NCBI GenBank assembly: GCA_951406725.2
Contig: OX597818.1
Location: forward strand, 8,308,001 to 8,372,000
DNA: 64,000 bases
From: Octopus vulgaris
Lineage: Eukaryota
Direction of reading: 5' to 3'
The position numbers were made by a program, and so were the translations under genes. Shown here piece by piece: positions 1-60,082 of the stretch (positions are counted from its first letter, which is position 1; every line of letters starts with the position of its first letter). The notes beneath the pieces are model-generated. The model saw only the letters and a program-made list of their open reading frames with translations. It did no database searches and was not told the origin of the DNA.

Positions 1-91
1 CAGATTGGGTATATCTATATATGTGTGACGTGCGTGCAAGTGTCTGAGAATGTGTATGTAAGTATGAGTCTCTTTCTATCTTTATATATAA

Positions 92-93
<2 letters not shown>

Positions 94-150
<57 letters not shown>
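94..150. repeat. (TG)n microsatellite
   Basis: Pure TG run seen directly. Confidence 0.97.
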
Positions 151-152
<2 letters not shown>

Positions 153-510
153 GGCGCATGGCTAGGTGGTTAGAGCTTCGAAGTTACGATCGTGAGGTTG
201 TGAGTCTGATTCCCGGGCCGGGTTGCCTGCCGTGCTCTTCAGCATGACACTTTGTTTCACGTTGCTCCTGTTACCTCAGCTGTAGAAATCAGATGCGACA
301 TCGGTGGTGGCAAGCTCTATCGGCATTTGCCTTTCCCTTGGATAACATGGGTGGCGTAGTGAGGGGAGGATGGTATGCGCGGGCGACTGCTGGTCTTCAA
401 TAAAATCAACCTCAGGTTGTGCGTTCGCCGATGAGGCGACTTTGCTCCCAGACTTGTACCCCGGAGGTGCACCTCCTACGTGCAACGATGGTCACTCGTG
501 ACCGACGGAA
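151..510 (+). mobile_element. tRNA-derived SINE
   Basis: Head GGCGCATGGCTAGGTGGTTAGAGC (A box) ... GAGTCTGATTCCC (degenerate B box), followed by a GTGCTCTTCAGCATGACACTT central-domain-like motif. 3' boundary approximate. Confidence 0.75.
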
Positions 511-534
511 TCGAGTAGAGTAGCCTATATATAT

Positions 535-1000
<466 letters not shown>

Positions 1001-1001
1001 A

Positions 1002-2200
1002 ACTATATATCCATTTTAAAATTCACTGTCTGTGTGCCTGTTTGTGTGTTTGCGTGTTAGTGTGAATCTCCTCTATGCATGGTTAATTTCGCATGAAGGT
1101 TTTTTCATTACTCGAGGAAAGTTCTCGGGGTTCAAATTTTGGCCCTTGCCCACATAGGGGGCTGTAGCCGCACGTTCTTTACAACCCTTCCGATTTTTTT
1201 CCGCGTATTCCTAAGTTTTAGATGACGGAGATTCCGAATATGCTAATAAAACATGTTTTCGAAATTTTGAATTCTCCTCGCCCCACCAAATTTTAAATTT
1301 TTAGCTTATTTGCAAGTTTTATTTTTTGTTTCAATCTAGGGGGAAAACACGGAGAAAATAATTTTAATTCCAATTTTTCAATCAAGACATTTATCCACAC
1401 ACCCATCGCCATTCCACCCAGTTGTCTAACACTGAAAATGAACTGCTAAAAATAAAAGCTAACTGTATGAATTTTTCTGTTTGTGTGTGCGTACGCGCAA
1501 CAATTTCTACAGCTTATACGAATGAACAGAAAAAGTAAAGAGAAATATGTTTTATGTACCTGTCGTATACGTCCGTTTCAGTTTTTTTTCGTTTTAAAGG
1601 TAAACGATTCTGATAGAAGCAAACACTATTGAATAATTTACCGTCATAAGTCTTCGACACCCAATTTTTTTTAAAGTAAATTAAACGCTTTTTAATTGTA
1701 ATAATGAAACAAGGGAGGAAGTCCGTACCACCAAAATTAATTTCTCTCGCAAAAGAGACAGTGATATTTTCTCTATTTTTCTATATTTAATTAAAAGAAA
1801 AATATGTTGTTCACAAAAACGTTACAATTTTACTAATTCATCGATCAGTCACTGAACCAGGATTTTAATTTCATTTCATACACACTATGCTACCATTTGT
1901 ATGGAGAATTGCAAACATGGCATGTAAAGATAACTTATTTTAATAGAATTTTTATAAGTACATTTTCGTAAATGTTTTTCTTGTACCCCTCGCCCCCACA
2001 ATGTTTTTCTTGTGCCCCTCGCCCCTGTACAATACGCACATGGATACATATGAATGAAGCCCCATTTTGGAAGTATGTTAAAGTTTTTATCATTTTGGAA
2101 TGAAAAACATAAGCGTAGCTGGTGAGCGAGTGACTAAACGTGTAGAATTTTGTTGGGATTAATCTAATGTATTGACAGCAAGGTTTGAAAGACGCACTTT
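1002..2200 (+). mobile_element. Probable Helitron 5' non-coding region
   Basis: CTATATAT... followed by CTGTCTGTGTGCCTGTTTGTG degenerate (GTCT)n, typical of Helitron/HINE 5' ends. Same orientation as the Helitron helicase and CTAG end at 10337-12465. The link between the two parts is inferred. Confidence 0.4.
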
Positions 2201-2214
2201 TCTTACAAACATTA

Positions 2215-2475
2215 TGATGGAGACAGAGAAAGACACACCACCCACTTCAACGACTACGAAACAGTAGGAGGAGACGATGAAAAGAAAGGCAGTTACGACG
2301 GAAGCAATAGCACTGTTGTCAACTTCTACAAATGTAAATGACGGTGAATGACAGGTGGCTGAGAGGAAGAGGAAAAAAGCAAATTACTCCTTCTCCCCCT
2401 CCCACAGAGAGACAAAAAAGCAAATTACAAGACTTTACAAACAAGAACACGCATGAACATTTAAAAGAAACAAGA
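2215..2475 (+). mobile_element. Truncated fragment of the ORF1-only element B family (C-terminal region), inverted relative to 3478-3752
   Basis: GATGGAGACAGAGAAAGACACACC...CTTCAACGACT...GAATGACAGGTGGCTG...TTACAAACAAGAACACGCATGAACATTTAA is a diverged reverse complement of 3478-3752. Confidence 0.85.
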
Positions 2476-2886
2476 ACTGGAATCGCTATGATGTAAAACA
2501 TAAATTTCGATGTTTCACACAACTTATGTAATTTTCAGAAGAAAAAAAAAACAGTACGGTTTCTAGATATCGAAAGGTCATCATACAGACGCACGTCCGG
2601 GGAAAACTCATATTAAATTCATATAAGTCATTCATCCATTCGGTCCTTTAGGCAATATACACTGTAGGATATCTTTCAATTTATACAATAAAATTTATAG
2701 ATTTTAAAGTTCATTATTCCCGTGATATAAGTTACAGATATCGACATGAGTTATTCAAATAATTGTTCGTGGAATGGATCTAGTAAAATTAGCTAGAGTA
2801 CACTCGATATTACATATTTAAATCGATGTGACTGTTTCTACTTGGATAGGGATTTGAAATTATATCTTGATAAACTTTTCAATGTT

Positions 2887-2908
2887 AATAATAATAACAA
2901 TAATAATG

Positions 2909-2975
<67 letters not shown>

Positions 2976-2992
2976 GAGTAATAATAATAATA

Positions 2993-3065
<73 letters not shown>

Positions 3066-3126
3066 GAAGAATAATAATAAGAAGAAGAAGAAGAAGAAGA
3101 AGAAGAACAACAACAACAACAACAAC
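2887..3126. repeat. Compound (AAT)n-(AAG)n-(AAC)n microsatellite
   Basis: Seen directly. Confidence 0.97.
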
Positions 3127-3307
3127 ATCGAAAAATATATTAGGAATGAGAACCCAGGTTCGAAATTTCCCCAAGGTACCTGATGAAGGCTGGAGGGTAT
3201 ATCTGCCGAAACGTTGTTTTAACAACAACAAGATGAGGACAAATATCCGTCAAATGTAAATAGTGTAAATAGTATACATAATTCCTCATCTCTTAAATAT
3301 AGAAGTG
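3127..3307 (+). mobile_element. Short Penelope-pLTR/retrozyme-like repeat carrying a hammerhead motif
   Basis: CTGATGA-AGGC...GCC-GAAACGTT at 3180-3216, followed by an AT-rich tail. Confidence 0.65.
3174..3222 (+). ncRNA. Minimal type I hammerhead ribozyme-like motif (helix I degenerate)
   Basis: Intact CUGAUGA (3180-3186) and GAAA (3208-3211) boxes, helix II GGC/GCC, palindromic AACGUU in the helix III position as in Penelope minimal hammerheads. Confidence 0.6.
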
Positions 3308-3309
3308 TA

Positions 3310-4817
3310 TTACATGTGAGGCCGAAAAAAAGAGAAATCGTGAATGCATGAATGTATAATTAATAACTGAAAAGATGAAATGATGGTCACCCGTGCCGCA
3401 CGACTCAGATTTTTTTTTCACTTTGCTTGGTGATGTCACATCAGTTTTTTTTGTTTTTTTCTCTTTTTATTCTTTTCACTTGTTCCTGTTAAATGTTCAC
3501 GTGTGTTCTTGTTTGTAACGTTTTGTAGTTTTGGGGTATTTTTTTTGTGGGAGAGGGAGAACGAGTAATTTTCTTTATTTTCTTCCTCCCAGCCACCTGT
3601 CATTCATCATCATTTACCTTTTTTAGAAGTTGTCAACGGTACTATTTCCCCCGTCGTAACTGTCTAACCTTCCACTCTCTCCTCCTGATGCTTCTTCTTC
3701 CGCTCTGCAGTCGTTGAAGTAGAAGGTGTGTCTTTCTCTGTCTCCACCATCACCTTCTTCTGCTTGTCCTCCTCTTCCATTCTTTACTGCTGCATACTGG
3801 CCTTCGTCCGACTTTCTCCCTGTGTCTCAGGTTTTAGGTCTTGAGAAACGTTTTTCTTATGTGTCCCTTTTGCCCACACCCGAAGTACTTTGGTACTCTG
3901 CCCTGTACAACGAAAGTCACTCTTGTATCATCCGGAAGGATGATGAACTCTGGTATGCTATCAACATCTGTGTGTGTGGCCTGGATTGTCGCTCTTACGT
4001 CCCTGCCAAACTAGTTTAAGGCACTTTTTTCTTCCAACTCCTATAGTTTTACGTCTTTTATGTTGGTAAAGGCCGCCGCCAGGAGTCACATTGGTTTGAT
4101 TTCCGGGTCGAATTCGTTTACCATTATTTTCGTTGTTCTTTTACTGGGATAAAACGGCTAAAGAGCTAATCCGCTTCTCGGCAGGGTGGTCGCCGCGTCT
4201 ATCTTGGCATCACTCTCAACCACAAACTGCGCCTCCGCCGTTCCGAACTTTCTTCCGCGCTTAACGAGCACCAATTTATAAATAACATGCTTTAATGTCC
4301 TTTCAATTTCCTCTATTGATGCTACCTCTATTTTCTGGTCTTCAGAAATAGCGGCCCATAAACAAGTGTTCTTTTCTTAATTCCTTCCATCACCTCCTTG
4401 TGGGGAGTTAGTTTCACATTGTCTCCCCCCACCACTGAAGAAATGACTGGAACTTCTCGACTGCCTCCGGCTTGATATTGTAACATTTCATCCTTCTTGG
4501 TGCCGCAGCCGCATAATCCTCCGTACTTTCTACGGATTCACTTGAGTAGTCCGCCTGATCCTCTCTCTCCAATAGCTCATAAAATGTGTCGTCATCCATT
4601 TTGTGTAGGACATACTACACAAAATGTAAACGCTTCACCCACAAACGGGGAAACCAAGAAGAAACCAGCCTGTGAAAGCTAGCAATGTGTCGCAAGACAC
4701 TAGCGGTTTTTCAATAATTTTTAGAACAAAGGCAATACCAAAAGGGAAAATTTGCAAGAAAATCAACGGCAATTCAACATTAACACAGCGCAACATGGTA
4801 GCAAACACACCACACTT
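3310..4817 (-). mobile_element. ORF1-only Tx1/L1-like element B (no RT; 3' end lost)
   Basis: Disrupted ORF1-like frame plus a 3' UTR motif shared with element A (CATTTCATCTT-TTCA.TTAT...TATACAT). Boundaries approximate. Confidence 0.65.
3420..4599 (-). pseudogene. LINE ORF1/Gag-like protein B (RRM-like region + degenerate CCHC zinc knuckle)
   Basis: Manual translation across stops and frameshifts: MDDDTFYELL..DYAAAA..VKLTPHKEVMEGIKKRTLVY..KIEVASIEEIERTL..KRGRKFGTAEAQF..DPEIKPM*LLAAA..IILPDDTRVTFVVQGRVPKYFGCGQKGHIRKT. Confidence 0.75.
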
Positions 4818-4830
4818 GACTACCAAAACG

Positions 4831-6702
4831 TTCTTCTTTTCTTTATTTGGGACCCGGGTCCTAACAAAGAGGGAGCAACACGAGGACAGACAGAACACCA
4901 CAGTGAGAACAAAAAACATAAAAAGAATGAAAAAAATGAAGATGTATATAAAAATGATAATGAAAGAAGATGAAATGGCTGCATTGAGCCCCACTCTCAT
5001 GCAGTACCATTTAACAGTTACTTTATACAATTACATCAATCGTTCTTACAAACTCTTTCTTTTTGTATCGTTCTTTTTCCAAATTTTCCAAATTTTTAAC
5101 AGTCTACTTTTCCTGTTTTGTTTTAAACAAATTTTACTTACATGCATTTTTTAAACGTACATTAATGGGTTTAGATTTTCGAAATCCACGACTGGTGGTA
5201 ACTCGTCAAACTCAATTTCAACCCCCAGTGCTTCTATGTTGATTCCAAATAGTTCTTGTAATTTCTCACATCTCTCTCTATCTATGATGATTCCGTTAGT
5301 CTTTTCCGGATATTTTCTGGAGGCAGCCTTACTCTTATTATTGATTTATACTTTAAGAGCTTTTTCTCTATTGTTGTACTTTTGGTAAACCTGACCATAT
5401 GCCACTTGTATGTTTTCCCTTTTCATCTCCTCTTGCTTCAGCTGCGATCCTGGGTTGTCCGGGCGTGAGAAAAAATCATAAAAGCTGCCTCCTTCCACAT
5501 CCTGTTGTAGTACTGTTGCAATGCCTTTTAGAGCCTATTGTAATACTGTTTCTGCCTCTGCACCGTCTTCCATTATTAATACTGTTGGTGTCTCGAACCT
5601 GTTTCTCTTCTCCTCCATCTCAGTATCTTTCAGCCATTTTTGACTCTCTGGAGGAGAGTTCACTCTTCTTTTCTTTTCCGCCAGTTCACGACTGTGAAGG
5701 ATTCCTCCATTCTGTCTCTGTTACTGGTACTACCTCTTTGGTACACTTTTCATAACTTTTCTCCTCTTCGTTTTCCTTCTCTGGACACCTCACCTTCATA
5801 TGCCCATTTTTGCCGCATAGGAATCATGTTGGCGGTCTTCCTTCTTCTACTACTCGAAGTCTGATGACTTCTGGGAGTATGATTTTCTCTGTGATGCCAT
5901 ACAGCTTTTTTAAACTCACTTGTATGGCAATCTCGAGGCTATACCCCCACCAGTTGACCTTTTTGGTCCTCGTTATCTTGAGGATTGTCACCTCATCCTA
6001 CATACCGTGCATTATGGCTTCCACCAACCACGCTTCCTTTATTTCAGGGAGTGATTTGCCGAATCTTACTTTGGCAACACTTTTGCCACAGTACATCGGC
6101 AGAAGTAGCCATTTCTGTGCCCTTATTGGCACAGTGGACTGGCTTATAGCATCTTCTTCGTTGCCAAACCTTACTTCCATTATGCCGTAATTTCTTCCCC
6201 GTGTATAAAAAGTTGTCAAACTTTTAACATTCTCAAAGCACTTCTCTATTTACTCTATCGGGACGACCTCTACCTTGTTTGAGGACGTGGACAGCGTCCT
6301 GTGAGCTACCGTTCTCTTTGCCACATTATTTCTCAATTCTTCTGGAGAACTCAGCTTTAGACTGACTCCTTCCTTTCCCAGCAATCTGCTTCCTTTCTTC
6401 CATTTCTTTGACTCAATTTTTATTTCCTATACATCAAGAGTGTTGGCATTTATACCTTGCGTAGTTGCCGTTGCGTAAATTTGTCCATGCTTCATCTTTC
6501 TTCCTTTCTCCACTTTTCCCATAGTTGGGGGATAAACAGATTCAGATAACATACAAACAAGACAGTGACGAAAATCCAACAATATTAAGAATTTAACAAA
6601 TCGTGGTACACCCACACATGGAGACCTTTAACAAATATATAATAGCAATGTGTAACAATTTTAACTCACGTTAAAGAAAAGCACTGCCAGCACCCCAAGA
6701 AA
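4831..6702 (-). mobile_element. ORF1-only Tx1/L1-like element A, apparently full length, 7-bp TSD CAAAACG (4824-4830 / 6703-6709)
   Basis: One ORF1-like frame, a ~320-bp 3' UTR ending ...GGGTCCCAAATAAAGAAAAGAAGAA on the minus strand, and a flanking direct repeat. No EN/RT sequence seen. Confidence 0.75.
5151..6522 (-). pseudogene. LINE ORF1/Gag-like protein A (RRM-like region + CCHC zinc knuckle)
   Basis: MGKVEKGRKMKHGQIYATA..LKLSSPEELRNNVAKRTV..KVEVVPIE*IEKCF..TRGRNYGIMEVRF..LLPMYCGK..LPEIKEAWLV..IILPEVIRLRVVVEGRPPT*FLCGKNGHMKVRC..VDFENLNPLMYV*. Several stops and at least one frameshift. Confidence 0.8.
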
Positions 6703-6804
6703 CAAAACGCTCACTCACGACTACTGCCGACCCTTACTCTTTATATGAGTTCGGCTAGACCATTACCCAATCCGCCAGGGGTGTTAATGACTATCGCCAC
6801 AGCA
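6703..6804 (-). repeat. 5' part (U3, TATA box) of the Gypsy 3' LTR
   Basis: Starts TG at 6804 directly after the polypurine tract AAAAGGGGAGA (6805-6815, minus strand). Direct repeat of ~10230-10336. Contains CATATAAAG. Confidence 0.8.
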
Positions 6805-6837
6805 TCTCCCCTTTTAATATTGACTTCCGCTGGAAAC

Positions 6838-6886
<49 letters not shown>

Positions 6887-6890
6887 TTTA
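6838..6890. repeat. (TAT)n microsatellite next to the PPT
   Basis: Seen directly. Confidence 0.95.
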
Positions 6891-9800
6891 TTTTTATTTC
6901 ATCACACCTCCCTTTTTGAGATTTTCCTTCTAGGGAAGTTTCATATTTCTTCCGCTTAGGCACTACTTCCAACTGTTCTATTTGTTTACTCTTTCTTGCG
7001 CTGCTACGTCTATGTTCGTATACTTGTGGTGTTGGAAAATCAAAGGTTTCATAGAACATTCCAATGGGTATCACTTTTCTTTTTATCATATATATGTTTC
7101 TTTTTTTAGCTAGGTTAAATGTCTATTGTGTTCCGATTTTTCCACTTATATATGTCATTTTTGACTATTCTTTTAGTTACTACTCTCTTTTCCCAACCTT
7201 GTCTTCCATTTTTACATATTTTGAAAAACACCTTGTCACTGATAATTTTTTGAAAATCCCTATTTGTTTTTGTTACTGGTAGCAGCTTGTCGAAAACTGC
7301 CTTTATTATCCCATCAAACATTAATTCCGCAAGCGACTTGCTAGAAAGTGCGTTTGGGATTGGTGTTACCCTATAAACCCTCAAGAATTACATCAATGCT
7401 GCATCATCGACTCGCACGTTTCTTGATTGAAGGTATCCACGTAACTTTCCGCTTGCTCGTGAGATCTTGGGTGATACGGAGGAATAGAAATATTTTCAAT
7501 TGAATACCTCTTGTAAAAATTGTTAAATTCATTCGCCGTGAACTGTGTACAGTTATCGGAGACTATGATATCAGGGACACCATACCTAGCAAAAAGTTTG
7601 TGTAGATATTCGACTCTTACCGTGGATGTCGGTTTGCTACTTTTACACATATCTTGTCATTTTTAAAACTATCTGCCACTATTAGATAATATGATAGGTT
7701 TAACGGTTCTGCGGAATCTATGCGTATTGTAGACCATAGAATATCGGTTTTGGGTCAATGTTGAAATTATATAGGATGTCACTTCGCTGCAAGAGTATAT
7801 CCTCAGCAGGATTTTACCAACTTCTCGATATTTAGATCTATTTTGGCCAGTAAACGTAACCCCTCATAAGCGACTGCATTCTAAAAATTCCTGAATATCC
7901 AGCGTGGAATTCCTTTAACATTCGGCCTTGTAGTGAGGTAGATATTACGACACTATGCATACATAAGCACATTATCACATATCGAATACAAATTCGAAAC
8001 TGTCTTACGCCCAGCCACAATATTTTTTATTTGTTTCTTCTGATCTCACTATTTTTATCATTTTTATGATAAACACGTCCGTCTCTACCTTAATTTTTAT
8101 TTCCTCTAACGTCATAGTCAGTTCTCGCATAATAATCCATAATATATGTTTTATTTCAGTTTATCTGTATCTTCTAGTGGTTTGCTGTATTTTGGTAGTA
8201 CTCGTTACAAACCATCTACATGTCCTAATGACTTTGACGGCAAATACTCCATCTTGAAGTCATAATTCAATAGAATCGTTCCTTATCGTAGCAATCTATT
8301 GGCTGTATGACAGGGGATACCATTTTTTGAACTGTAGATCGGCAATAATGATCGGTGGTCTGTCTGCAGATAGAAATTGTTTTTACCTAAAATATGATGG
8401 TTAATGCCTCGTTTTCAATTTGACTGTAGTTTTTGTCATCCGAAGATAATGAACACGAAGCATGAGCTACTTGATTTCAGGCTATCATCTTCATACTTGT
8501 GTAAAATCACAGCTTCGATACCACATTCACTAGCATCTGCTGCCACTACTATTTCTAAATTCGGGTCAAAATGTGATAACGCCAATTCTGACGTTAAGAC
8601 GTTTTTAATATTTTCAAAAGCTTTTCGGCATTCGTCTGACCAGTTTAATAAGTTATTCACAGGTGCTCTTAAATCGTGCATATTCGGTATGTATACCTGG
8701 TAGTAATTTGCAAGCCCCTAAAATACTTGTTACGTTGTAATGTTCGTTGGGGAGGCATATTTTTATTTCACTCGCCCTAGACGAGTCTGGTCTGAATCCA
8801 TTTTCATCAATAACCTGCCCTAGTTATTTTATACTTGGCATAAACAATTCACACGTTCTTCGCTAAGTTTAAAACTATAATATTTTATTCTTTCGAATAC
8901 CTTTTTGATATGCCCTGTATTATGACCTCGAGATTCACTTTTATGAGTATGCTGTCAAGTTAGGCTCCAAAAATGCGAACCGGGGAGTATTATGTTCATA
9001 ATTTGTTGGAAAATTTTACGTGCTACATTTATACCAAAAGGGTTGCATTAAATTTTTACAACCACTTATGAGTATTTATTGTCAAAAATTTTGAGCATTC
9101 GTCATCGACTGTTACCTTACAAATATGCTTCAGATATGCCTCCATTCAATTCGCTAAAATGTATTCCGGACTTGGTAACGGGCATCAAACATTCGTTTAA
9201 TGCCATTGAAAAATCAGCGCATAAGCGGATTTTATTAATTATTTTTGTTGACGTAAAATGTAGGGAACACACATTTTGAGTAATCAATTTTTTCAATAAT
9301 GCCAAGCCTTTTAAGTTTCTCCAATTCTTCGTAGACTTGTTTAAACGCTGCCAAATGTACCGTTTTTTTTTTTTTTTGGTGGGGGGGTTAAGTACCGATA
9401 TAGCGTTTTGTTTCTTTTCAAACTTCGCCTGTGTTTTGTCCGGGCTATATCTTAAATTTATAATCCTCTAGCATTTTTCAGCCACTGTCTGCAGAGTTAT
9501 TTTTGGGTCCTGTTCTAGTTTTGTTAATAGACAGAAACGTATATCAGCATCTTTTCTTGCTGTTAACCATTGAGCAAAAATTAGACGTTTGAACAAATCC
9601 GGGGTTAATTCATTCAATTTGAATTTTTCACACTCTCTGTTAACGACCCGAGCATAAGTGGCAAAATCTTCGTTTTTTTAACTAAATTTAAACATTGCCA
9701 ACAAGTATAGAACAAAGAACTTCTTTTACTGAAAATTCTCGATAAAAAATTTCACTGTTTCATCGAAACAAATCTCACCTCATTTCATCCGCAGAATATA

Positions 9801-10144
9801 GTTACAGTATTTTGCGTCTTCCTCAGGGGATAACTTTCTTAAAAGTAGTCTCACCTACTTTTCGGCATTCCAATTGTTAAATTCATCGTTGGAGGTTTTT
9901 TCGTATCTTCTAAAATATGAAGAGAAAGTAATATTTTCTTTTGGGTTATAAATATATATTCCCATTGTCTGACGCGAATGAACCTGAAGTATTTTCAATC
10001 TTCTTCAACATTACATCCAGTTACTTCTGTCGGTGCTGTTGTTGTTGCTGTTGCAATAGTACTACGCGAGGTAATAAGCCTTCCATGTTAAATCATTTTT
10101 GTGTGAGTTTCGTGTCAAAAATAATTAAACGTCCTACGCAAGAT

Positions 10145-10336
10145 TCGAATATATCATCACCACATTTATATACTGCTACCGGTGGGTATAGGTAATTAAT
10201 GTGTAGCACGACGTACGTCATGAGACTACCAAACACACTCTCTCTCTCTCGTCTACTACCGACCTCTACTCTTTATAAGAGTTCGGCTAGTCCATTCTCC
10301 AATCTACCAGGTGTGTCAGTGACTCTTGCCAAAACA
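10145..10336 (-). repeat. Gypsy 5' LTR (inner boundary approximate)
   Basis: Starts TG at 10336, contains CTTATAAAG. Aligns with 6703-6804 and continues with TTTGGTAGTC, which matches 4818-4830. No clear PBS. Confidence 0.7.
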
Positions 10337-12290
10337 ATATTACACATAGCAACAGACCACTAAACAATGAAATTGACCTGCCTTTGGTCAGACTGTTGAA
10401 GGATATCCAGGTATCAAGAGGGATTCAGCATAGGGACGGATCTACGCTGTGTATCCCAATAATATTGAGTGTTATTTCTTGAGGCTCCATTTGCACACAG
10501 CCCATGGTCCAAAGTGTTTCCTAGATCTGAAGACTTTTAGTAGCCATATATGTATTCTTACAGACAGGTTTGCCCTTTCCATGGCCTCTTTGAAGATGAC
10601 AGTCACTGGAATGTGCCTCTGGATGAGGCAGTTGTTGCAGGTTCTGTATTTCAGTTGCAAAATCTCTTCGCTATTATGCTTCAAGCTTGCAATATCGCTA
10701 GCCTTCGCCGACTGTGGGAGAAGCACCAGAAATCATTCTGTGAAGAGATTGCTTGCAAATTGCAGAGACAAAACCCAAGGTCTTGAAACCTAGCTGACGG
10801 AGAACATCAGGAATGAAACTCTACTTCTTTTTGAAGACAAGGTCCTTCAGTTTGGAGGAAAACTTTTGCAGGAGTATGTCTTGCCAAATCCAATAAGAGA
10901 ATAGCAAAAAATAGACCTGGAAATTTTAAAGGAGACAGCCTATAACATCAACAATGTCAAATGAGTATGTAACAGAGAGTGAGCTTAAGCATTTGACTGA
11001 GCAATGGACAGCTTAGAATTTCATGGCTCAAGAGCAAAAGGGTGGTCTGTTCATTTTGGGTGCTCCTGTGGGCACTGGCAAAATCTTGATCAACCTCTTT
11101 TTTAGGAAAAGTTCATCTAGATTGGTTTATTTCATTGGTGGTGGCGTCTTCTGGAATCACAGCAACTCTTTTGGCATGTGGTCGAACACCTAATTCTATT
11201 TTCAAGCTTCCTTTGAATTTAGTTAGGACATAGAGTTCAATTTGCCTCATCTGTAAGACATCAGCAAAGGCTAAGGTCTTGCAGCAGATGTGCTTGATTG
11301 TCTGGGATGAATGCATCATACTTGAATATTTGAAGCTGTTGACCGCAGCCTAAGAGATTTGAGAGGAAAGAATATTCTCATGGGTGGTGTCACCACCGTA
11401 GTCTTGGCTGGTGATTGGAGACAAACACTTTCGGTGATCCAAAAAGGTACAAAGACAGATGAACGAAAGGACTGTCCCAAGCAATCCTATCTGTGGAGGT
11501 AAGTGACCGAACTGCCCCTGACATTTAATATGAGGGCCCAATTATTTGCTGATCAAACTGCTGGGCTGTTTTCATGCAAGCGCTTGAACATATGGAATGG
11601 GCAACTACATTCTGTCCACGAAATACAGCAACACAGGCTACCCTGTGGTGAGATGGTACCTACTGTCAATGATCTCAAAATGCATGTGTTTCCAAACATT
11701 GTACAAAATGTTAGCAAGTCAGTAGCTATGTGAGCCAGCCATCTTAGCTCCACGTAATGATGGTGTAGACAAATCAGGATCTGTTGCAACTGTTGCCAGA
11801 ACAAAACAGTCTTTCAAATCCATCAACACTGTCATTGATCAGGACCAATCTGTAGTGTTTCAACTGAGTTCCTGAACCCTCTATAGCCATCTGACATGCC
11901 GTCTCACAACTTAACATTAGCAAGGGGGTCCCCAATCATGCTGCTCAATAATCTGGATCCACCTCACCTCTGCCATAACACTAGACTGGTGGTGAAAGCC
12001 ATGCAACCCCCAGAAGCAGGAATTATCACTGAGAAATATAAAAGTGACGATATCTTCATTTCATTCGACAGATCCCGTTAATTCCATCTGACCTCCCGTT
12101 TTGATTTAAACGGTTCCAGTTCCCCGTAAAACTACGTTTTCCTATGTAGATATAGAAATCGCAAGAACAATCTCTCAAGTTTTTGGACTTAACCTTGCTT
12201 CTCCTTACTTCTCTCATGTGCAATTATATGTAGAATATTCGCGCGTTGGAAGGCCCAAAACTCTTTTTATTTAAACCTCAAATTAAATGA
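10337..12290 (+). pseudogene. Helitron RepHel C-terminal part with PIF1-family helicase (many stops and frameshifts)
   Basis: ECYFLRLHLH..GP..F.DLKT; Walker A GAPVGTGK; VASSGITATL; GRTPNSIFKLP; LIVWDEC; LAGDWRQTL; PSHNLTLARGSPIMLLNNLDPPHLCHNTRL; RFQFPVKL; KSQEQSL; FSHVQLYV..SRV. Confidence 0.93.
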
Positions 12291-57849: not shown

Positions 57850-58402
57850 GAGTAAGAGGCCATTGCATGTCATCAGAGTGGCACTGTAGAAAAAATATAC
57901 GAAGCCCTGCATACCCACTATGGCTACACGTCTGATAAGGGTGCATCAGGTACAAGCGTCGCAAGCATATGTGCACAAGATGGTGTTTTCATATTAAGTT
58001 AAACAGCTCATGATTTTGCAGGTGGGATCCAGTAAGAATTTTCTTGAGGTTAAGTAACCCAAACGGCTCAAAAGATCCCTGAATAAGGGTTGTTTAAGGA
58101 TGTTGAACAAAATACCTATGTTTCCAGAGGTGAATTATTCAAACTCCAAAGAATTCCTCTCAACACAAGCCTTTGATGATCCTCCATTACTTCTGCTCGT
58201 GATCAGAGATGCACATATCGTCAGCCAATAAGGGATATTCTCAACTGGTTAACGTCAAACAACTGACAAGCAAGTTGTGGAACTGAGCAGAATATTTGTA
58301 GATCATCGTTTCTACCAAGACAAAAAATGTACATGATAACACATCCAATCAGTTAAAATCAGAAAGCCATGAGAATCACTGCCAGGTACTGCATCACGGC
58401 AT
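57850..58402 (-). mobile_element. Interspersed repeat (SINE or LINE-derived), family unassigned
   Basis: 57865-57920 resembles 59410-59470 (CATCA.AGTG.CACTG...ATAT.CGAAGCCC..TATAC). Bounded by microsatellites on both sides. Strand tentative. Confidence 0.5.
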
Positions 58403-58911
58403 TTCTTCTTCTTCTTCTTCTTCTTCTTCTTCTTCTTCTTCTTCTTCTTCTTCTTCTTCTTCTTCTTCTTCTTCTTCTTCTTCTTCTTCTTCCCCTTCTT
58501 CTTCTTCTTCTTCTTCCCCTTCTTCTTCTTCTTCTTCTTCTTCTTCTTCTTCTTCTTCTTCTTCTTCTTCTTCTTCTTCTTCTTCTTCTTCTTCTTCTTC
58601 TTCTTCTTCTTCTTCTTCTTCTTCTTCTCCGTCTTCTTCTTCTTCGTCTTCTTCTCCGTCTTCTTCTTCTTCTTCTTCTTCTTCTTCGTCTCTTCTTCTT
58701 CTTCTTCTTCTTCTTCTTCTTCTTCTTCTTCTTCTTCTTCTTCTTCTTCTTCTTCTTCTTCTTCTTCTTCTTCTTCTTCTTCTTTTCTTCTTCTTCTTCT
58801 TCTTTCTTCTTCTTCTTCTTCTTCTTCTTCTTCTTCTTCTTCTTCTTCTACTTCTTCTCCTCCTCCTCCTCCTCCTTATCCTTATTATCATTATTGTTAT
58901 TATTATTATTC
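58403..58911. repeat. ~450-bp (CTT)n array grading into (CCT)n and (ATT)n
   Basis: Seen directly. Confidence 0.97.
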
Positions 58912-59280
58912 TATGTTTGACTTCTGCTTTATGTTTGTACAAGTTGGCTCCAAGTCTCACCCAGAGACCTCAAGAGACAACAGGTTGGAAGTTCACGTTG
59001 CTGTTATGCCTAGTGTGCCATATATTTGGGGGATTTTGGTGTTGTACTAGTGAATGTCTAATAAATAAATTTTAAAAAAGTTTGTTTTAATCCTTGAGAT
59101 TACATAGAGAGTATTTTGCGTAGGATATGAGCAGTTCCCATGAGCACTATCTTTTGAATTTCTGCCATTTTCGGGTTTCCTGGTATGTGAGTTAGGTAGC
59201 AATCAGCCCCTTTTGCTATCATTCCCAGGGCACCTATGACAACAGGTATTGTTTTAGTCTTCAGGTTCCACATTTTGCTG
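58912..59280 (-). mobile_element. 5'-truncated Dong/R4-type LINE 3' end embedded in (TAA)n
   Basis: ISKMWNLKTKTIPVVIGALGMIAKGA..EIQKIVLMGTAHILRKILSM* plus 3' UTR, with TAA repeats on both sides. Confidence 0.9.
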
Positions 59281-59287
59281 ATTATTA

Positions 59288-59378
<91 letters not shown>

Positions 59379-59552
59379 CAGTATTATTATTATTATTAAG
59401 AAGCAGTGCGTGCCATCAAAGTGACAAAGTGACACTGGGGTAAGATATGCGAAGCCCAGTATACGCATGAAATACCATGAGAGCCATCAGGACATTATTA
59501 TATCATCATCATCATCATCGACAGCTTCAGTAGTAGTAGTAGTAGTAGTAAG

Positions 59553-59588
<36 letters not shown>

Positions 59589-59590
59589 CT

Positions 59591-59639
<49 letters not shown>

Positions 59640-59790
59640 GAAGCTGTCGATGATGATGATGATGATATAATAATGTCCTGATGGATCTCATGGTATTTCA
59701 TGCGTATAGTGGGCTTCGCATATCTTACCCCAGTGTCACTTTGTCACTTTGATGGCACGCACTGCTTTCTTAATAATAATAATAATACTG

Positions 59791-59862
<72 letters not shown>

Positions 59863-60074
59863 GTAATAATAATAATAATAATAATAGTAATAATAATAAT
59901 AATAATAATAATCAGCAAAATGTGGAACCTGAAGACTAAAACAATACCTGTTGTCATAGGTGCCCTGGGAATGATAGCAAAAGGGGCTGTTTGCTTACCT
60001 AACTCAGATACCAGGAAACCCGAAAATGGCAGAAATTCAAAAGATAGTGCTCATGGGAACTGCTCATATCCTAC

Positions 60075-60082
<8 letters not shown>
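59112..60082. repeat. ~970-bp near-perfect palindrome centred on (TA)n at 59555-59586
   Basis: Arms are reverse complements, apart from microsatellite length differences and a few substitutions or indels. Confidence 0.95.

Follow-up and report, generated by a model that had tools for sequence, protein, structure and literature searches.

An ORF1-only LINE family of Octopus vulgaris inserted in one orientation at the start of the R region of Gypsy LTRs

Nested LINE copies in a Gypsy LTR

The window analysed here is a stretch of 64,000 nucleotides of Octopus vulgaris DNA (positions 8308001-8372000 of contig C5 in a genome of 2.8 Gb). It contains, on the minus strand, a decayed Gypsy retrotransposon with an interrupted LTR, and two LINE copies, A and B, lie at the point of interruption. 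The relevant features are listed below (L-numbers, here and throughout, are labels of the genomic loci compared).

3310..4817 (approximate), minus: element B, a second ORF1-only element, of a sister subfamily, whose 3' tail is lost; recognised from its translation, its head having at least 22 genomic matches
4818..4833, minus: 3' copy of the target duplication plus six further LTR bases, common to A and B
4834..6702 (earlier given as 4831-6702), minus: element A, an ORF1-only LINE copy without ORF2
within element A, minus: 5' UTR of about 180 nt; ORF1 at about 6522-5150; CCHC knuckle near 5830-5780
6703..6804, minus: 3' LTR of the host (family LTR1), U3 and first R bases; TATA box at 6740-6745, 5' copy of the duplication at about 6703-6712
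6805..6815, minus: polypurine tract, recognised from its sequence; the same tract precedes the LTR1 copies L034, L039 and L049
6816..10164, minus: decayed Gypsy internal region, with RNase H at about 8200-8700 and integrase core at about 7300-7740
10165..10336, minus: uninterrupted 5' LTR of the host, also matching intact LTR1 copies elsewhere

The host displays the hallmarks of a Gypsy retrotransposon, i.e. an LTR pair, a polypurine tract and RNase H placed before integrase (Pfam RT_RNaseH_2, E = 1.1e-12; rve, E = 8.4e-6). Since the RNase H and integrase remnants lie in Gypsy order between the LTRs, both LTRs belong to one old Gypsy element. Only its 3' LTR is interrupted, the 5' LTR being intact. 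The first-pass annotation, made from the letters alone, had proposed that A interrupts a Gypsy LTR, and this agrees with the 81% identity between the flank of A (6710-6799) and the 5' LTR (10242-10331). The segment 6703-6804 is LTR rather than part of the element A consensus, since it has at least 36 genomic matches and these are mostly uninterrupted LTRs.

Element A is a decayed copy, now dead, of a LINE family that encodes ORF1 only and belongs to the L1/Tx1 group. Its ORF1 is broken by several stops and one frameshift, its 3' UTR terminates in AATAAA and a short A-rich tail, and no match to ORF2 was found within positions 1-11000 of the window. It is flanked by CAAAACG at 4824-4830 and 6703-6709, as first reported, and the distance of 36 nt from this repeat to the first T of TATAAA (6745, minus strand) was also borne out. 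However, the proposed target duplication of 7 bp was too short: it measures 10 bp with one mismatch at A, and duplications of 11–17 bp, in co-oriented insertions, are seen within single loci that are better preserved, so that a duplication is indeed reproduced at other copies. The longer duplication starts about 33 nt after the TATA box, and 4831-4837 probably belongs to it. Removal of A had been said to rebuild the LTR; about six more LTR bases (4818-4823) do follow, but the remainder of the LTR is absent from the left part of the window because element B begins there.

The spacer found at 4818..4833 also separates a family tail from a B-type head at L279, L282 and L284, and B-type copies are present at LTR1 elsewhere, directly behind U3 in L293 and before the remaining LTR1 in L388. 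From these placements, it is likely that B entered this LTR first and that A was then added in front of it. The 3' end of B is cut off by a repeat (3058-3310) which is also present inside ORF1 in L379, and which contains a hammerhead-like motif near 3180-3215, perhaps that of a Penelope-type terminal repeat; Rfam searches found no hammerhead ribozyme in the flanks of 8 loci, this candidate not being among them. Other repeats noted in the window are an inverted match (2214-2474) to positions 3479-3750 of B (77%), a decayed segment with helicase-like words, Helitron-like by eye (10400-11500), and a palindrome of about 1 kb (88%) and a tandem repeat (59112-60082 and 58400-58930).

The ORF1-only family and its autonomous relatives

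The best 40 of 472 candidates were scored in a search with the 3' end of A, and its 5' end gave at least 35 matches. Complete units with both ends measure 1.3–2.1 kb and consist of a 5' UTR, ORF1 and a 3' UTR, without ORF2. The suggestion of a non-autonomous ORF1-only family is upheld by the absence of an endonuclease downstream of A-type ORF1 in all 55 hits with room downstream (0/55; these are rows, some of them overlapping); among the endonuclease-bearing elements sampled, ORF1, where detected, is only 33–48% identical to the A type. Comparison of 11 ORF1 copies gave a median dN/dS of 0.31 (range 0.09–0.75; 49 of 55 pairs computable), the lowest values being found between the most distant copies. 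This fits past selection on ORF1 in an old ORF1-only lineage; alternatively, the copies may have had separate origins from unsampled autonomous parents. Pfam assigned no family to this ORF1, and its sole homologue in the protein collection is from Octopus sinensis; the family is accordingly not a HAL1 in the strict sense, which derives from mammalian L1. Copies lie inside contigs at many positions and not, as for HeT-A, at chromosome ends only.

A young autonomous family, with 24,975 candidates, has an intact ORF2 of 1130–1133 amino acids at many loci. The ORF2 of L121 (1130 amino acids) contains RVT_1, Exo_endo_phos and zf-RVT domains, and thus the APE endonuclease, reverse transcriptase and C-terminal zinc motif of the L1/Tx1 group; its best match among solved structures is human L1 ORF2p (E = 2.7e-71), that to R2 being far weaker. 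A close reverse transcriptase homologue comes from Argonauta; the homologues are unnamed or hypothetical proteins. A Tx1 affiliation is presumed from the short ORF2 and the target preference. The A-type and young autonomous ORF1 are about 35% identical (31–37% over most rows), with the CCHC motif in the alignment. The structural model of the autonomous ORF1 core (pLDDT 72.7) resembles tandem RRM proteins, and the protein is predicted to contain two RRM-like domains and a CCHC knuckle. No BLASTN match exists between the tail of A and that of the young family, whereas an A-like tail (75% over 66 nt) terminates L390, an older ORF2-bearing copy that lies in a B-type array. The young autonomous family is a relative of A and only a putative partner. 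An ORF2-only partner was considered at L190 and rejected, as ORF1 lies upstream there, broken by a SINE and another insert.

Insertion sites, spacing and leaders

The first-pass annotation had expected most copies to lie in this one LTR. This was not the case: only 1 of 30 3' flanks, that of the window itself, starts with the LTR1 duplication. Among these flanks (n = 30, copies listed), 13 lie in the R-U5 part of five other LTR families (6 in LTR2, 2 each in LTR3, LTR4 and LTR8, 1 in LTR6), 1 in an LTR-like repeat, Z, 1 in repeat R1 and 2 in an AT-rich repeat; 5 run into the head of another member (including the window's) and 8 have no match in the library. There was no antisense match, and control stretches matched in 1 of 30 cases; since the target library was made from such flanks, the rate is descriptive and not a test. 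On the other side, 12 of 30 5' junctions, the window counted, fall behind a library target (8 LTRs, Z, and R1 three times), 1 behind the AT repeat, and 8 full-length ones were flagged as lying behind a family tail.

Was the window an isolated case? That caveat can be lifted, as relatives occupy the same LTR1 site elsewhere and the matching position in unrelated LTR families. The LTR1 site is reused at independent loci (L131, L293 and L388); at L131, a second A copy, bordered by a duplication of 11 bp, divides a solo LTR1 whose two halves are intact. In other LTR families, too, copies are split at the corresponding position and retain both halves (L132, L198, L382, L384, L385, L392 and L393), and U3 and R-U5 halves surround single copies or arrays at L382, L384, L385, L388, L392 and L393. 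When 83 LTR loci from three families were chosen by their U3, family sequence was downstream in sense orientation in 13 and in antisense in 1, and upstream in 0 and 2, respectively; it starts at the site itself, with differing 5' UTRs, in at least 7 of the 83 (L226, L234, L240, L246, L255, L256 and L270). With the LTR4 R region as query, 7 of 19 other rows carried a family tail at the site, three of these 7 probably being duplicates; the corresponding figures were 1 of 19 for LTR8 and 0 of 19 for R1.

Insertion is thus site- and orientation-specific at LTR R starts, of which we are nearly certain; the proposal of R-region targeting stands in this form, except that the LTR1 sequence is not the target. 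The duplicated sequences have little in common beyond being purine-rich. The lengths of 11–17 bp come from single loci; the rows for LTR4, LTR6, LTR7 and P281 compare two loci and fix the site only. Arrays arise by repeated insertion, because their units are separated by the duplication of the host LTR; template jumping was rejected as their source for that reason. Z and R1 are both repeats, and a single-copy host promoter was rejected as target for them. Rfam detected no tRNA or snRNA gene at 8 loci, where the targets are LTRs and other repeats, and not Pol III genes of the TRE5/Ty3 type.

What the targets seem to have in common is the distance from a TATA-like box and not the LTR sequence. 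Relative to the duplication, this box starts at −30, −32, −31/−33, −31/−33, −37, −30, −33, −31 and −29 to −36. Nine of 10 ORF1-only target families fall in one 8-nt window (permutation corrected for window choice, P about 5e-5, with anchors set by hand). With a window set in advance (−41 to −30), 7 of 13 target families qualified against a background of 18% (P = 0.004). In an eleventh target, R1, which has no TG..CA ends, the box starts at −31. A prediction made in advance for three flanks held for LTR8 and for LTR4 (partly seen before); the third, the AT repeat (L030), was too AT-rich for scoring. In a looser test on 18 full-length, non-tandem 5' ends, 12 were positive in a 28-nt window, and 15 other windows gave 1–12 of 18, so that this test decides little by itself. 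The majority of the targets belong to short Gypsy LTRs that are related to each other and begin their R region with purine-rich sequence, so that a degenerate sequence preference may be involved. TATA boxes and start sites of LTRs are variable, and RNA data are required to place them, according to a passage in PMC3601003.

The young autonomous insertions lie 36–44 nt below TATA-like boxes of non-LTR repeats, 4 of 5 targets falling in another single window (P = 0.036). This family also forms head-to-tail arrays of about 5.26 kb units on C22 (14.22–14.25 Mb; L121-L123), C27 and C30, with about 42 nt between a TATA box and the beginning of the first unit. Exceptions are target U162, which has no TATA-like box, and L169, without the TATA segment. 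The commonest target of the young family is T1, a repeat that is Helitron-like by its ends; at L149 and L165, T1 holds a decayed ORF1-like fragment whose codons form the TATA-like box. Target T4 (L143, L146 and L151) is a tandem repeat in which 3' junctions fall at three points spaced by about 11 nt, which is near the length of one helical turn. At L162 / L299, an array with a 16-bp duplication lies behind CCAAT- and E-box-like motifs, with no TATA; the site is possibly a host gene promoter. An abundant SINE (L190:17-248; 31 copies in the loci compared) has a tail 84–88% like that of the autonomous LINE. Among its 31 copies, 11 have a clear duplication, several being microsatellite-like, and the TATA spacing was found in 2 of these 11 (background 0.11), which weakly suggests a role for ORF1 or the 5' leader.

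Several copies carry, in front of their own 5' UTR, what appears to be a piece of an earlier host. L186, which lies in Z and is flanked by a duplication of its own, has the LTR3 R start in front of its 5' UTR. The 5' copies in L132, L133, L310 and L186 have a one-base variant in common. The 3' copies of L132 and L133 lack it, as do 9 of the 10 empty LTR3 copies that could be scored (a further 11 could not), which is the pattern expected if a master copy gave rise to RNA whose start lay in the R region of LTR3. Similarly, an LTR4-like head is present on the R1 copies L209 and L213 and not on L212. Such short leaders from the R region of an earlier host point to promoter borrowing, and the family is probably transcribed from a borrowed host promoter. 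Leaders from earlier sites are stacked in the young autonomous family. Drosophila HeT-A also carries stacked 5' tags.

Proposed mechanism, alternatives and known systems

We propose that members of the family insert co-oriented in other transposons, mostly Gypsy LTRs, and would be mobilised in trans by the ORF2 protein of a related LINE, according to the following steps: (i) position and orientation are fixed in many unrelated targets, with the duplications and arrays described above; (ii) judging from general promoter geometry, in which about 30 nt separate the T of TATA from the start of transcription, the first nick would coincide with the start site of the host or fall just behind it; (iii) as the leaders suggest, the RNA would begin in the host R region and a full-length copy would carry a short leader from that host, and 5' joining may be aided where this leader resembles the next target; (iv) ORF1 would be kept, in line with its dN/dS, being needed in cis; and (v), most speculatively, the core promoter, by its bound factors or open DNA, would guide the machinery while local sequence fine-tunes the cut. 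The combination of co-oriented insertion about 30–37 nt below TATA-like boxes of other transposons, borrowed transcription and ORF2 acting in trans is, as a whole, what we consider likely. Whether it is the core promoter that is recognised, or instead a degenerate sequence, is close to evenly balanced, leaning slightly against the core promoter, and a mix of both is plausible. Somewhat more doubtful is the widest form of the proposal, in which the whole lineage, autonomous and ORF1-only, would recognise the Pol II core promoter, cut at the start site about 30–40 nt below TATA, have no promoter of its own and shut off host read-out, with stacked leaders recording its hosts and ORF1 acting as targeting factor.

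These observations could also be explained by ordinary sequence-directed Tx1 targeting, where the endonuclease and the RNA ends would read a degenerate sequence at LTR R starts; the TATA spacing would then reflect how LTRs are laid out, and promoter use would be incidental or would not occur. The T1 junction speaks for it, being fixed to one sequence even though the spacer varies by 3 nt, as does the concentration of young copies in that target (about 26 of 40 end there, among the matches listed); a C also precedes the duplication in T1-T4 and U162, and a passage of PMC4494074 names the endonuclease as the main determinant of target choice in such elements. However, the same 5' UTR type occurs in targets with dissimilar duplications (LTR1, LTR3, LTR4, Z and R1), and the spacing holds too in R1, which lacks LTR ends; we regard this explanation as unlikely.

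Two others, far less probable, concern how the insertions came to be where they are found. A few insertions might have been multiplied by the LTR elements' own copying, and three near-identical junctions on contig C28 (L360, L361 and L365) do look like one event; yet in the window the 3' LTR alone is interrupted, many unrelated host families are involved, solo LTRs have differing flanks and different subfamilies, some 5'-truncated (L388 and L396), are found at one site, so that such hitchhiking is largely refuted already and hardly credible. Random insertion followed by selective survival or detection behind promoters might be suspected because the searches give the best 22–41 matches of large families (e.g. 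the best 40 of 472). Ranking was nevertheless by likeness to the element and not to its flank, dead copies are not position-selected, and agreement of sites at base level together with the strand bias makes this very improbable.

The first-pass annotation knew of no prior description of the combination that it proposed. Tx1 families with a preference for LTR retrotransposons have been reported (PMC4494074), and ORF1-only LINEs are known as well; no description of TATA-spaced LINE targeting was found in the full-text literature, Repbase and most subscription papers being outside the scope of the search. Each ingredient is known; their combination, with TATA spacing across unrelated hosts, was not found described. 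Closest are the target-preferring elements of the Tx1 clade, especially crocodilian Tx1-8_Crp and Tx1-4_AMi, Tx1-Mar and SINEU, which in the relevant passages of PMC4494074 use L1/Tx1-type machinery and transposon targets including LTR retrotransposons, show tandem insertions split by the duplication, and for which (SINEU) transcription driven by the flank was proposed. Target-specific insertion with duplications of about 10–20 bp is expected of the Tx1 clade and is seen in octopus too (11–17 bp). Unlike the octopus family, with its many unrelated targets at fixed spacing, each Tx1 family in those passages prefers one target family or sequence; the main text of PMC4494074 makes no link to TATA or start sites, and the positions inside crocodilian LTR targets may match ours.

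Resemblances to other systems are partial. HAL1 is non-autonomous with ORF1 only, but it comes from mammalian L1 and no target specificity is given in the passage concerned (PMC5753468). Drosophila HeT-A, in the part of PMC5537684 that deals with it, is Gag/ORF1-only, forms head-to-tail arrays, takes its promoter from upstream sequence and uses Gag for targeting; in contrast to the octopus family, it is telomere-bound, carries that promoter in its own 3' UTR and makes no endonuclease target duplication. Dictyostelium TRE5-A and yeast Ty3 also insert at positions specific relative to a transcription start (a TRE5-A ORF1 contact with TFIIIB in vitro; Ty3 at 1–4 bp from the start site; PMC5006619, relevant passages). 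They use Pol III tRNA genes, whereas the octopus targets would be TATA-type, Pol II-like transposon promoters, and the octopus insertions are downstream and co-oriented, so that the host promoter can drive the insert. R2 is similarly co-transcribed with its target, target sequence in its RNA strengthening site-specific integration, but has a single rDNA target, Pol I transcription and a restriction-like endonuclease (cited in a passage of PMC4494074). In an octopus repeat annotation (PMC13282606), L1-Tx1 appears in a table only and the words 'target', 'nested' and 'promoter' are absent.

The observation is real, reproducible and broader than the first-pass annotation supposed, and there is a fair chance that it represents a new targeting mode. 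The target-specific LINEs known so far recognise a sequence in the DNA or attach to Pol III genes; if the proposal is right, insertion at a fixed distance from TATA boxes in Pol II promoters that are unrelated to one another would be added to these modes, and TRE5-A and Ty3 would have a Pol II counterpart, a parasite of the promoters of other transposons. It would also give a reason why ORF1-only elements keep ORF1, a point open to test here given a SINE of similar tail in which the pattern is missing, and the insertions would be a genome-wide marker of transposon start sites. As intact young autonomous copies exist, the mechanism is open to assay. With respect to growth of the octopus genome, the family caps the promoters of Gypsy LTRs by a polyadenylated unit of its own and forms multi-kilobase arrays. 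Finally, one and the same sequence, without a match to ORF1 or ORF2, interrupts LTR1 and LTR3 at the site used by the family (L038 / L307 and L269 / L306), and may be another passenger of the same machinery.
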